Shown: positions 2,739 through 5,624 of the stretch, in pieces
Layout of the letters: each line of letters opens with the position of its first letter
Position numbering within the stretch: position 1 is the first letter of the stretch
DNA from: an uncultured Candidatus Saccharibacteria bacterium
GTDB lineage: Bacteria; Patescibacteriota; Minisyncoccia; Phycocordibacterales; DATDWN01
Direction: 5' to 3'
NCBI GenBank assembly: GCA_964608465.1
Contig: CAZSNI010000004.1
Location: 1-41,836, forward strand
Length of the DNA stretch: 41,836 nt
Program-made: the position numbers and the translations under genes
The notes under the pieces: model-generated
What the model saw: the letters and a program-made list of their open reading frames with translations, nothing else
What the model was told of the DNA's origin: nothing
The model's database searches: none

Positions 2739-2974
2739 GAAAAAGTAAAAAATATTGGATTCAATTTAATTAGAACTGAATAAAAAATATGGAGTTGAAC
2801 TGGGTAAGGATATGCGGATATTTAGACCAAAATGAGCCAGGACGTATTGATAAAGAGTTGAACGATAGCTTGTTAGTGAAAGGCATAAACTAGATCACTA
2901 CCAAGTTAAACTACAAGCTAGATTCTTAAACTTTAATAAATGTATCTATCTTTTATTATAGTTTACCTATAGGA

Positions 2975-2997
2975 TTATCAATGTTTATCAATGTTTA
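2975..2997. repeat. 10-bp-period direct repeat (TTATCAATGT x2 + TTA); putative operator, copy A
   Basis: Contains GTTTATCAATGTTTA (2983-2997), identical to 3851-3865; overlaps the -35 region of a minus-strand TATAAT at 2955-2960. Confidence 0.7.
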
Positions 2998-2999
2998 AG

Positions 3000-3383
3000 T
3001 TAATTATTATGAGATCGTAAATATTTTCTAATGCTCTTTGGACTAACATCTAGAGTCTTCTGTTTCTTTGATTTTAGTAATACAGATATCTTTTCAGGTG
3101 ACATTCCTTGCTGGTTATACTTCAGTATTAGATTCTGTAGTTTTGAACTCTTGGCCACCTTATTCTGGTTAGCTTTCTTACTCTCCTGTCTCTCTATTGC
3201 TCTTATATGTGCTGTGCCTGAACTGTAGTTTGTCTTGCCTCCATTTCTACTAACTTCCTCACTAATACTTGATATGCCTCGTTCTAGAAGCCTGGCGATC
3301 TCTGTGACACCTTTTCCAACCTTAAGCATCTTCTCTATTAGAAATCTCTCTTCTTTTTTTATGTGTAATTTTTTATTTTTCAT
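3000..3383 (-). CDS. Solo IS30-type N-terminal DNA-binding protein (HTH_38-like), no DDE catalytic domain
   Basis: EERFLIEKMLKVGKGVTEIARLLERGISSISEEVSRNG...Y...A...R and SPEKIS...VSPKSIRKYL match the IS30 transposase N-terminus; ends at 127 aa with TAA. Confidence 0.75.
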   Translation of the reverse strand: MKNKKLHIKKEERFLIEKMLKVGKGVTEIARLLERGISSISEEVSRNGGKTNYSSGTAHIRAIERQESKKANQNKVAKSSKLQNLILKYNQQGMSPEKISVLLKSKKQKTLDVSPKSIRKYLRSHNN

Positions 3384-3811
3384 GTTATTGTTGATTCTAC
3401 ACTCTTCGTATTTAAAGGTAAAGGTAGCATTTACAGAATATGTTGATAAATTCCAATATATCGGATAATTCAGTACAAAACTCGATACTACGTTAGTATC
3501 ATAATTATACTTTATACCGCATCAAAAACGCCATGGTTTTATGTGGCGGTGTAGTTAAAAACTAAAGTAATGCGTTCCCCACTAATACAGTATTCTGGAC
3601 AATCAATTTGGCCCTATATGACACATATAGTAGTAAAGTTAGTACACATACTCACCTCTGCAGTGATTATGGTATATAACTTGAACATTGTTTGTCTTGA
3701 TATTGAACTTAATCAAAGTATTAAGAAATGAATTTGCCAATATAAGTAATATCATATAGCGATTGAAGTAAATGACCGAAGTTCACTGTCCACATTTTAA
3801 ACAAAGAAACA

Positions 3812-3870
3812 TTGCTATTAATATATAAACCTAATAAAATATGTATATACGTTTATCAATGTTTATAAAA
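3812..3870 (+). promoter_or_regulatory. Sigma70-type promoter (TTGCTA-17 bp-TAAAAT) followed by operator-like repeat GTTTATCAAT GTTTATAAAA (copy B)
   Basis: -35 at 3812-3817, -10 at 3835-3840, repeat at 3851-3870 just before the ATG at 3886. Confidence 0.6.
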
Positions 3871-3885
3871 CTTTAATTCAACAAA

Positions 3886-4128
3886 ATGGCTAATTTATAC
3901 ATAACAATTAAACAGGCTTCTAAGATACTTGGAGTCTCTCCACTCACCCTTCGCAACTGGGATAACAATGGAAAGCTCAAAGCCCATCGCCACCCAATGA
4001 ACAACTATCGGGTTTATAAAATTGAGGATCTAGAAAAAGTAATTCATGAGATCGAAGTTAATGCGGGAATGAGAAAAAGTACCAAAAAGGAAGTTCACAA
4101 ACTCATTGTTAAGCATTTAAGAGATTAA
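3886..4128 (+). CDS. Small MerR-family/excisionase-like (BldC-like) HTH DNA-binding protein, 80 aa
   Basis: YITIKQASKILGVSPLTLRNWDNNGKLKAHRHPMNNYRVYKIEDL is a typical MerR/HTH_17 winged helix. Confidence 0.85.
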   Translation: MANLYITIKQASKILGVSPLTLRNWDNNGKLKAHRHPMNNYRVYKIEDLEKVIHEIEVNAGMRKSTKKEVHKLIVKHLRD

Positions 4129-4133
4129 AGTTC

Positions 4134-4177
4134 AAATACAAAAAAATACCTCCGTCAAGAGGTATTTTTTTGTATTT
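4134..4177. terminator. Bidirectional intrinsic terminator between the HTH gene and gatB
   Basis: Perfect 19-bp inverted repeat AAATACAAAAAAATACCTC-cgtcaa-GAGGTATTTTTTTGTATTT between convergent stops. Confidence 0.85.
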
Positions 4178-4193
4178 TACTGAAATTATTTTT

Positions 4194-5624
4194 TTATTTA
4201 TTTAGCAGTTCCATAACAATTTTTTTAAACACTTCTGGATTTACTGAACCCTTACTCACTTTCATCCCCTGCCCCACAAAAAACTGTAACAAGGATTCCT
4301 TTCCGGATTTGTATTCCGAAACTGAAGCAGGATTATCATCAATTATTTTCTGGGCCATCTTTTTAATTTCTTCAGTATCATTTTTTTGAATTAAACCTTT
4401 TTCGTTTGCAATAGTTTCCGCATCCCCACCAACCTCAAAAATAATTTTTAAAATATCTTTTGCCCCACGTGACGACAAGTCACCGTTTCCAATCATTGTT
4501 ATAAGTTTTACAAAACTAGCATTTTCAATCTTACCAACAGAAAAGTCTGTTTTTAGGTTTTTAGAAAAACCAACAATATCTGAGGTTATATAGTTTGAGG
4601 CAGTTTGAACTAGTTGTCCCCCACCAAGTTTTGAAGCCACTTCTTCAAAAAAGTTACCTGCTGAAACATTACCAATGTACACCTCAATATCGGAATCTTT
4701 GATTCCGTAAGTTTTTGAAAGTCTCTGCCTTTTTAGTTCTGGGATTTCTGGAAGGTCTTTTGAAAGAGCATCTTTTGAAAAGTCAGGAACTTCACTTGTT
4801 ATAAGTTTAGGAAGATCTGGGTCAGGAAAATATCTATAGTCGTTTGCAGACTCCTTCAATCTTTGTGAAAAAGTAGATCCTTTGTTTTCATCCCAACCTC
4901 TTGTTTCCTGAACAACTTGCTTCCCCTCTTCAATAAGTGAAGTCTGTCTTTTGAACTCGTAATCAATTGCCTTACCAGCAGCCTTAAATGAGTTGATGTT
5001 CTTAACTTCAACTTTAGTCCCGAACTTATCAGAATCTGAAACAGAAATATTTACCTCAACTCTCATCTCACCCTTTTCCATATTTGCATCTGACACATTT
5101 AAGTATTGTAGGAGTAGTTGTAGTTCCTTAGCAAAGTTCATTGCTTGCTCACTACTATGTATTACAGGCTCAGTTACTAACTCTAAAAGAGGCACTCCAG
5201 CACGATTATAATCCACAAGACTAACACCTGGAGTTTCGTGCGAGGAACGCGCTGTGTCCTCTTCTAGATGTATTCGGGTTAATTCTACCCCAGCAATAGA
5301 TCCTCCACTCACCAGCGGATACTTATACTGACTAATCTGATAACCCTTTGGGATGTCAGGGTAGAAATAGTTTTTACGATCAAACTCCGTAAAATCAGCT
5401 AGTTTACTACCTATAGAATGTCCAACAAGAAGCACTTTTCTTACTGCCTCCTTGTTAATAGTTGGTAGAGTACCTGGATGACCCAAGCAAATAGGACAGA
5501 TGTTAGTGTTAGGAGCCACCTCTTTCTTATCAAAAGAACTGTTCTTGCACCCACAAAACATCTTACTCTTGGTATTTAGTTCGGCATGTATCTCCAAACC
5601 TATTGTCATCTTATACTTATCCAT
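4194..5624 (-). CDS. gatB: Asp/Glu-tRNA amidotransferase subunit B
   Basis: IGLEIHAEL..SKMFC, CPICLGHPGTLP, RKNYFYPDIPKGYQISQ, RIHLEED, YRYFPDPDL. Confidence 0.97.
   Translation of the reverse strand: MDKYKMTIGLEIHAELNTKSKMFCGCKNSSFDKKEVAPNTNICPICLGHPGTLPTINKEAVRKVLLVGHSIGSKLADFTEFDRKNYFYPDIPKGYQISQYKYPLVSGGSIAGVELTRIHLEEDTARSSHETPGVSLVDYNRAGVPLLELVTEPVIHSSEQAMNFAKELQLLLQYLNVSDANMEKGEMRVEVNISVSDSDKFGTKVEVKNINSFKAAGKAIDYEFKRQTSLIEEGKQVVQETRGWDENKGSTFSQRLKESANDYRYFPDPDLPKLITSEVPDFSKDALSKDLPEIPELKRQRLSKTYGIKDSDIEVYIGNVSAGNFFEEVASKLGGGQLVQTASNYITSDIVGFSKNLKTDFSVGKIENASFVKLITMIGNGDLSSRGAKDILKIIFEVGGDAETIANEKGLIQKNDTEEIKKMAQKIIDDNPASVSEYKSGKESLLQFFVGQGMKVSKGSVNPEVFKKIVMELLNK

Follow-up and report, generated by a model that had tools for sequence, protein, structure and literature searches.

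Two copies of a candidate promoter-operator module for a small MerR-like protein beside a giant fibre gene in a Candidatus Saccharibacteria genome

The window analysed here is a complete 41.8-kb contig (CAZSNI010000004.1, C4 below) of an uncultured Candidatus Saccharibacteria bacterium, whose assembly comprises 649 kb in 38 contigs; wastewater is the main source of the sequencing runs in which the window sequence could be found. Transcription control in the Candidate Phyla Radiation (CPR)/Patescibacteria, with their 0.6-Mb genomes and very few regulators, is almost unstudied. The window encodes a stand-alone MerR-like winged-helix protein of 80 amino acids (aa), here called MerR80, divergent to a giant surface-fibre gene, and between these two genes lies a 127-aa gene of the HTH_38 family that derives from an IS30-family transposase. 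A 15-mer, GTTTATCAATGTTTA, occurs identically at 2983-2997 (copy A) and 3851-3865 (copy B). From comparison of related sequences, the best explanation, which we hold to be probable though by no means secure, is that the two 15-mers are the downstream arms of two paralogous promoter-operator modules of MerR80, each of about 60-80 bp.

The tandem repeat and the MerR80 promoter

An earlier note on this DNA had described two identical 15-mers, each inside a head-to-tail 10-bp repeat, and both parts of this description hold. In addition to the two exact copies, a copy with one mismatch lies at 2973-2987; allowing at most 2 mismatches, 3 occurrences were observed in the window against 0.32 expected from dinucleotide shuffles of the window, and the two exact copies are the only ones in the 649-kb assembly. 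Both are embedded in 2.5-3 head-to-tail units of 10 bp with the form TTTAnnAAnG, reading GATTATCAAT, GTTTATCAAT and GTTTAAGTTA around copy A (2973-3002) and GTTTATCAAT, GTTTATAAAA and CTTTAATTCA around copy B (3851-3880). The degenerate tandem motif TTTANNAANGTTTANNAA has three exact matches genome-wide, two of these at this locus, and none in shuffles. A motif scan of eight whole genomes of the genus placed 4 of 4 exact matches at the MerR80 locus, with four scattered matches for a reversed control pattern, and the three searched genomes without MerR80 had no exact match to the motif. The genome-wide scan that the earlier note had proposed thus sets aside its concern that the repeat might be background: the scans for the 15-mer, for the degenerate motif and in the relatives' genomes rule this out, the 15-mer being confined to two sites and the degenerate motif being nearly locus-specific. 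There was also no sign of a wider MerR80 regulon, as the near-matches that were checked elsewhere in the genome (G000) all sit within long open reading frames (ORFs).

Copy B and the MerR80 gene are arranged as follows.

3787-3794, + strand: upstream box of module B, a degenerate TTATCCACA-type box that reads TGTCCACA; GTTATC(C/A)ACA in relatives
3807-3819, + strand: inverted arm of module B, AAACATTGCTATT, containing the -35 hexamer; CATTG(A/C)TAA or TTGCTAAACCTTACTAAA in relatives
3812-3840, + strand: predicted MerR80 promoter, TTGCTA-17-TAAAAT, with its position kept in orthologous loci
3851-3880, + strand: direct arm of module B (copy B), three tandem units between about +4 and +30 of the predicted RNA
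3886-4128, + strand: MerR80, an 80-aa stand-alone MerR/HTH_17 winged helix with two extra C-terminal helices

As the earlier note had stated, copy B lies just downstream of the TTGCTA-17-TAAAAT promoter of this helix-turn-helix (HTH) gene, beginning 11 nt past it. Promoter-like matches in the window equal the shuffle expectation in total, and no promoter call is statistically weighty.

MerR80 relatives are encoded on 404 stretches of a species-representative collection, from which 80 oriented loci were taken for analysis. Counts of tandem-motif positions have 79 loci as their denominator and allow at most one mismatch unless called relaxed, and expected rates per locus come from same-locus background. 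In type-a loci the giant gene starts about 300 bp upstream of MerR80, and in type-b loci the 127-aa HTH_38 gene lies in between; the type-b members are the window, 9 of the 80 loci, plus one further locus, L107. In 51 of the 79 loci, the coding strand has the tandem motif 10-65 nt ahead of the MerR80 ATG, against 0.005 expected per locus, and the consensus of the direct arm over these 51 loci is TTTATTAAgGTTTATtAATGTttAa (TTTATTAAgG TTTATtAATG TttAa). Inverted units further upstream could be recognised in 29 loci, commonly about 40 bp away start to start, and where the inverted arm is present it carries the -35 hexamer, for example as TTGCTAAACCTTACTAAA or CATTGATAA. Even homologues from other families of the order, with only 44-58% identity to MerR80, keep 2-4 tandem 10-bp units upstream, as in G039 (TTTATAATGT, TTTATAGTGT, TTCATAATGT and CTTTAATAAT). 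The co-occurrence of the repeat with the 80-aa HTH protein that the earlier note had raised is therefore seen in 51 of 79 species and down to these distant homologues. B-type modules also occur in about 70 species without HTH_38 and at loci without a giant-head gene, so that neither of these two proteins is needed to explain the modules.

Between MerR80 and its closest relative, nonsynonymous divergence (dN) is 0.016 and synonymous divergence (dS) is saturated, with a dS of 1.5 for the HTH_38 gene. With synonymous change already at saturation over this shortest available distance, the conserved non-coding blocks should be under selection. The putative MerR80 operator is, on this comparison, a large palindrome of tandem units around the -10 hexamer. 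Autoregulation of MerR80 is well supported by the comparison among loci, with MerR80 as the presumed binder and repression as the presumed outcome.

MerR80 itself matches the Pfam families MerR (PF00376, 4.7e-11, 42.8 bits against a cut-off of 28.2) and HTH_17 (E 4.1e-8, 33.8 bits against a cut-off of 27), whereas the excisionase model TIGR01764 stays below its cut-off (25.8 against 28.8 bits) and all NCBIfam MerR-type equivalogs score far under theirs. The protein is 80-99% identical in 21 of 24 genomes of the same genus and is thus better conserved than GatB (59-90%). The recognition helix LTLRNWD and the wing RHPxNYRVY are invariant among 36 MerR80 sequences, and the 44-58% homologues retain an xTLRNWD helix and an RxPxNxYRxY wing. 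An AlphaFold2 (AF2) model with a pLDDT (predicted local distance difference test) of 83.8 gives a winged helix followed by helices at residues 46-60 and 67-79. A Foldseek search of this model against the PDB returned, at E-values of about 3e-3, the N-domains of BmrR, MtaN and HiNmlR together with Pukovnik Xis, BldC and RacA; BldC (6amk_A) superposes with a root-mean-square deviation (rmsd) of 1.5 Å over 49 columns (TM(target) 0.80, E 3.9e-3) and Pukovnik Xis (4j2n) with 36% identity over 52 columns (TM(target) 0.73). The winged-helix likeness to BldC and Xis that the earlier note had suggested thus reappears in the predicted fold. The MerR80 gene has no obvious Shine-Dalgarno sequence. In the literature, no description was found of the MerR80 regulator, nor of domesticated IS30 HTH genes in Patescibacteria.

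The synteny of giant gene, MerR80 and gatB is kept across the genus and beyond, and gatB (4194-5624, - strand) is convergent with MerR80. A perfect 19-bp inverted repeat, with 6 nt in its loop, occupies 4134-4177 between these two genes and probably acts as a terminator in both directions. Elsewhere in the assembly, contig C2 (26329-26514, - strand) encodes a MerR80-like HTH with 44% identity over residues 6-64 and two in-frame TAA codons, immediately ahead of a 463-aa ORF; this stretch may represent either a decayed paralogue or the HTH portion of an IS607-like gene.

Module A and the IS30-derived gene

Around copy A and the HTH_38 gene, the following features were recognised.

2923-2940, + strand: inverted arm of module A, TTCTTAAACTTTAATAAA, the reverse complement of two tandem units, overlapping the -35-like TTAATA at 2933-2938
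2933-2962, + strand: promoter-like TTAATA-18-TATAGT, a consensus match only, antisense to the HTH_38 gene and directed toward MerR80
2973-3002, + strand: direct arm of module A (copy A), abutting the HTH_38 stop codon
3000-3383, - strand: HTH_38 gene, 127 aa, matching Pfam HTH_38, with two HTH motifs that correspond to the N-terminal half of an IS30-family transposase
3422-3394, - strand: HTH_38 promoter TTTACC-17-TAGAAT from the promoter scan, inside the insertion sequence (IS) end feature at 3394-3427
3404-3427, - strand: retained IS30 left inverted repeat (IRL), with the reverse complement CTACCTTTACCTTTAAATACGAAG, matching the ends of full-length elements
3438-3463, no strand assigned: conserved 26-bp block, ATATGTTGATAAATTCCAATATATCG, just outside the IS end and kept in 7 of 7 type-b loci

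Among the seven type-b loci that could be aligned, copy A (tTTATyAAkGTTTATnAA) is the only well-conserved island between the proximal block of the giant gene and the HTH_38 stop codon, the spacer around it being otherwise unalignable. A second plus-strand module was found in 8 of the 9 loci with HTH_38 at most one mismatch away, and in all 9 under relaxed matching, with only 4 chance-like matches of poor fit and at unrelated positions in the 70 other loci. The inverted arm of module A is one of the three exact matches to the degenerate motif in the genome, and inverted arms 41-51 bp upstream of copy A are also present in loci L021-L025. Taken as a promoter, TTAATA-18-TATAGT places the direct arm of copy A at about +4, which matches the geometry of module B, although the hexamer call is statistically weightless; a -10-like hexamer lies 11-14 nt ahead of the direct arm in 7 of the 7 type-b loci compared. 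Module A is oriented rightward, toward MerR80 and away from the giant gene. The conservation pattern argues that module A is kept by selection.

A helical phasing of the distance between copies A and B was considered and rejected, as the distances (about 868, 892, 872, 878, 812, 810, 802, 779 and 738 bp) have no common phase. In the variable positions of their units, A and B agree for the first unit in 8 of 10 loci; these loci are phylogenetically clustered and the agreement was not used as evidence.

Several related arrangements were observed. Locus L107 (JBAQTF010000010.1, 1837-3464) is a second whole-locus copy, with a MerR80 paralogue, modules B and A, HTH_38 and a giant gene; its modules A and B both read TTTAGTAATG, and its MerR80 paralogue is broken by an in-frame stop and has altered motifs, with an intact orthologue on another contig (L061). 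In runs X2, X3, X4 and X7, the assembly graphs fork at the modules (3799-3853 and 2648-2997). A co-occurring relative carries module B with 5 differences behind a different upstream sequence ending in ..ATATCCACAGAATC, and another contig has only the giant-proximal block and copy A in common with the window, with 298 unrelated bases between them.

The origin of the HTH_38 gene could be traced through full-length relatives of 333-335 aa, which score 182 bits on the IS30 model and are 46-51% identical to HTH_38 over the N-terminus. The 127-aa protein covers only positions 1-84 of 267 in the NCBIfam IS30 transposase model, with 31.6 bits against a cut-off of 80, and both the DDE domain and the right IS end are gone from the window, so that the product is a derivative rather than a transposase. 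It is intact in 10 species at 40-75% identity, with dN/dS of 0.11-0.16 where dS is measurable, and the IS left end is nearly invariant across type-b loci. The open frame ends no more than a few codons from copy A, and the tail past ..SIRKY varies among species. Purifying selection of this kind argues that the 127-aa gene has been domesticated from the DNA-binding half of an IS30 transposase; the IS30 origin given in the earlier note is therefore upheld, but its description as a remnant is not, in so far as this meant mere debris. Together with its retained IS end, the gene resembles a self-contained pair of protein and site that stems from a transposon. The conserved block at 3438-3463 places a minus-strand box of the TTATCAACA type some 20 nt ahead of the HTH_38 -35 hexamer.

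On a GatB tree, six of the type-b loci group in one clade and the others fall into three further lineages, which forces at least two changes. This distribution fits one insertion followed by losses, for which recombination between the two modules would offer an easy route. In one related long-read metagenome-assembled genome (MFD01476.bin.1.25, CAVSGX01; L124-L129), six near-identical full-length copies of an IS30-family element, encoding a transposase of 318-331 aa and having ends that read ..CCACCTTTGAAGTAGGACAG.., indicate that the family is active in the lineage. In one metatranscriptomic run, a single contig matched any part of the window's first 20 kb (3304-3512, 210 nt, 97% identical, unstranded); it spans the 5′ end of HTH_38, the IS end and 85 nt beyond, passes the predicted HTH_38 start site and is too thin to serve as RNA evidence.

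Proposed mechanism and alternative explanations

Of the three DNA-binding domains encoded locally, only MerR80 accompanies the motif everywhere, and the invariant helix and wing of MerR80 match the invariant TTTA, AA and G positions of the motif. It is reasonable to suggest that MerR80 protomers could line up head-to-tail along each arm, in the manner of BldC and Xis on direct repeats. To judge from the geometry, the arrays would bracket the promoter, cover the -35 hexamer and block early elongation, which could result in tight autorepression. Module B (3807-3880) would be the promoter of MerR80 itself. An IS30 element may have landed between MerR80 and its divergent giant partner and later been trimmed to its DNA-binding half and the IRL, and module A (2923-3002) would be a second copy that has been selected for since this insertion. 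Module A most likely acts in one of two ways, either as a second MerR80-controlled rightward promoter that would give antisense or read-through RNA across the IS30-derived gene, or as a MerR80-occupied boundary between this gene and the co-oriented giant gene.

Several observations weigh against this interpretation. The direct arm has no match at one mismatch or fewer in 28 of the 79 loci, and the promoter-like hexamers of module A are no commoner than in shuffles and weakly conserved. Both the -35 arm and the GTTATC(C/A)ACA box ahead of it are similar to DnaA boxes and could serve another factor, and the direct arm lies within the predicted transcript, where a role at the RNA level in the 5′ untranslated region (UTR) is possible. 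As for the protein, the Foldseek E-values are only about 3e-3 and the N-domains of classical MerR proteins score equal to BldC and Xis; moreover, the two C-terminal helices of MerR80 are absent in BldC, and a symmetric dimer is possible on an operator that is partly palindromic.

The alternative explanations concern above all the giant gene and its start region, which contain the following features.

1-2610, - strand: 5′ part of the giant surface-fibre gene, with its ATG at 2610-2608, an HTH_17-like head and then a transmembrane helix, running off the contig end
2655-2738, no strand assigned: proximal control region of the giant gene, the best-conserved block beside the giant start in type-b and type-a relatives
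2655-2663: TGTGGATAA, the reverse complement of TTATCCACA, DnaA-box-like, in the proximal region
2673-2688: palindrome TCTCGTTTAACCGAGA, in the proximal region
2698-2714 and 2722-2738: tandem ATCCGAGAnTTTGGTAA, in the proximal region

The match of the giant head to Pfam HTH_17 is weak, and the head has no similarity to MerR80 that would indicate paralogy (BLASTP E > 100). In G016, the orthologue of the giant gene encodes 2788 aa and has FG-GAP, Peptidase_S74 and Ig-like domains. When the giant head was used as the query of an iterative search, 58 of the 80 loci had a divergent gene with this type of head directly upstream of MerR80, such genes being giant or of 280-420 aa. In relatives, the stem of the palindrome at 2673-2688 covaries from CTCGG/CCGAG to CTTGG/CCAAG, and the tandem ATCCGAGAnTTTGG is among the conserved candidate sites of the giant head at the gene start. 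The palindrome and tandem units at 2673-2738 are candidate sites for the tethered head of the giant protein itself. Relatives have GTTATCCACA or GTTATCAACA as the box some 10-15 bp ahead of the MerR80 -35 arm, and exact TTATCCACA occurs 21 times in the genome against about 8 by a rough estimate from base composition.

Alternatively, module A could serve as the operator of a distal giant-gene promoter, by which MerR80 would co-control the fibre and its own gene. The distances lend this some appeal, since module A is some 310-370 bp away from the start of the giant gene, like the single module in loci without the IS30-derived gene, and 58 of 80 species have MerR80 divergently paired with a giant head; it is also unlikely that a second operator, 868 bp from an autoregulated promoter, would have been kept so long without a local function, and the reverse complement of the direct arm bears TTGATA hexamers toward the giant gene. 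Nevertheless, type-a loci have the tandem module at MerR80 only and none nearer the giant gene, and copy A is not general at giant-gene promoters, being found only where the IS30-derived gene intervenes. Module A has the orientation and geometry of module B and points away from the giant gene, which has its own conserved TTATCCACA and CCGAGA palindromes at its start, about 310 bp from module A in the window. The earlier note had copy A overlapping the -35 region of a distal promoter facing the giant gene, but the minus-strand TTGATA-15-TATAAT that this would require has a non-standard spacer of 15 nt and is absent from the scan output, and this claim was not reproduced. From the autoregulated switch co-controlling the giant adhesin that the note had proposed, the conserved cis-elements tied to MerR80 remain, whereas the co-control of the giant gene is not supported, copy A being confined to loci with HTH_38 and pointing away from that gene. 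We consider such a distal operator unlikely, if deserving of serious attention.

A broader arrangement, which strikes us as distinctly improbable, would be a two-regulator circuit in which the giant head occupies the CCGAGA and TTATCCACA sites and MerR80 oligomers occupy the arrays about 300 bp upstream, so that by wrapping or looping the levels of fibre and regulator would be set jointly, the operator having been duplicated after the IS30 insertion to keep both genes controlled. If true, MerR80 would be a BldC-like architectural regulator dedicated to host-attachment fibres and conserved across Paceibacteria.

The repeats might also be bound by the giant head, by the HTH_38 protein or by DnaA, through parts resembling TTATC(C/A)ACA, instead of by MerR80. 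Three DNA-binding domains are encoded within 1.3 kb, and about 10 bp ahead of the -35 arm are TTATCCACA/TTATCAACA boxes to which the TTATCAA core bears a resemblance. Yet B modules are present in about 70 species without HTH_38 and at loci without a giant-head neighbour, and the motif is missing from genomes without MerR80. In addition, the expected target of HTH_38 is the IS30 end at 3404-3427, which is conserved and of unrelated sequence, and the giant head is unlike MerR80 and has candidate CCGAGA palindromes of its own, all of which makes another binder very doubtful.

It is less credible still that the TTTA..AA units are curved or AT-tract DNA of a promoter leader, or a 5′-UTR RNA element, kept for promoter strength or translation. 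The conserved positions are indeed A/T tracts phased at 10 bp, and the direct arm is transcribed in a gene with no obvious Shine-Dalgarno sequence. However, the inverted copy lies upstream of the start site and is untranscribed, conservation extends to the G at unit position 10, other promoters of this and related genomes lack the motif, and module A is kept without a downstream ORF.

The remaining possibility, given by the earlier note as its alternative, that the 15-mers are recombination ends (a target-site duplication, IS ends or att-like excision sites) of the ~870-bp segment with the IS30 remnant, is refuted as far as such comparisons can do so and retains almost no probability: the 15-mers are direct repeats around the segment, MerR80 has an excisionase-like fold and the patchy HTH_38 cassette on the GatB tree fits occasional loss via module recombination, but the ends of full-length IS30 relatives read CCTCTCCCCACCTTTAAATACGAAG and are unrelated to the 15-mer, which is therefore neither an IS end nor a target duplication, the remnant spans only 3000 to about 3427 and stops about 420 bp short of copy B, copy B occurs in about 70 species without the IS30 fragment and so predates or is independent of it, both copies are conserved far past neutral decay, and no recombinase gene is adjacent. 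As a weak negative, contigs of 7 metagenomic DNA runs contained no A/B joint from excision or deletion and had the integrated form contiguous, though rare forms could escape contigs.

Significance and comparison with known regulators

The locus offers a sharply defined candidate regulator-operator pair, with a protein of only 80 aa, beside giant HTH-anchored fibre genes with a presumed role in attachment. The operator, with its inverted arrays of 10-bp head-to-tail units, is unusual. The locus also provides a natural example in which the DNA-binding domain and one end of an IS30 element appear to have been domesticated in a control region while the neighbouring operator was duplicated and both copies were kept. 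With IS30 elements, the HTH_38 gene shares the two-HTH region and one terminal repeat, which here doubles as a promoter region, but the fragment would be a bystander to the 10-bp repeats and not their source.

Compared with classical MerR proteins (MerR, BmrR, MtaN and HiNmlR), MerR80 has the Pfam MerR HTH at its N-terminus and superposes on their N-domains, whereas it lacks the long coiled-coil dimerisation helix and the effector domain and has two short post-wing helices only. The spacer of its predicted promoter is 17 nt instead of the classical 19-20, and its candidate sites flank the promoter, over the -35 and past the start, instead of forming one dyad in the spacer.

Excisionases and recombination directionality factors (lambda Xis, Pukovnik Xis 4j2n and RdfS) resemble the winged helix-turn-helix predicted for MerR80, and cooperative binding to phased direct repeats is their established mode. 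The genomic context differs, however, as the MerR80 locus has no integrase, attachment (att) site or mobile element. MerR80 is flanked by gatB, obg, tyrS and the giant gene, with no recombinase among them, and its gene is chromosomal and vertically inherited with conserved synteny.

BldC of Streptomyces (6ama, 6amk) is a small MerR-like winged helix that stands alone and has no effector domain, and MerR80, as predicted, resembles it in these respects. On 9-bp direct repeats of the form AATTxxxx(C), one per protomer, BldC assembles as head-to-tail cooperative multimers (PMC5859096). Its sites and the candidate sites of MerR80 both comprise variable numbers of head-to-tail repeats, each having an AT-rich core and, a few bp from it, a conserved G/C. 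At the sequence level the two proteins do not match (24% identity), and only MerR80 has the extra C-terminal helices (residues 46-79). The BldC unit is 9 bp long, whereas the candidate unit of MerR80 is 10 bp (TTTAnnAAnG) and its arrays form an inverted pair around its own promoter; BldC is pleiotropic, whereas the regulon of MerR80 is apparently its own locus only. The tandem 10-bp units are nevertheless consistent with BldC-type head-to-tail binding by MerR80, and if MerR80 does bind in this way, the BldC recognition mode would reach a distant phylum with another unit length and a palindromic super-arrangement.

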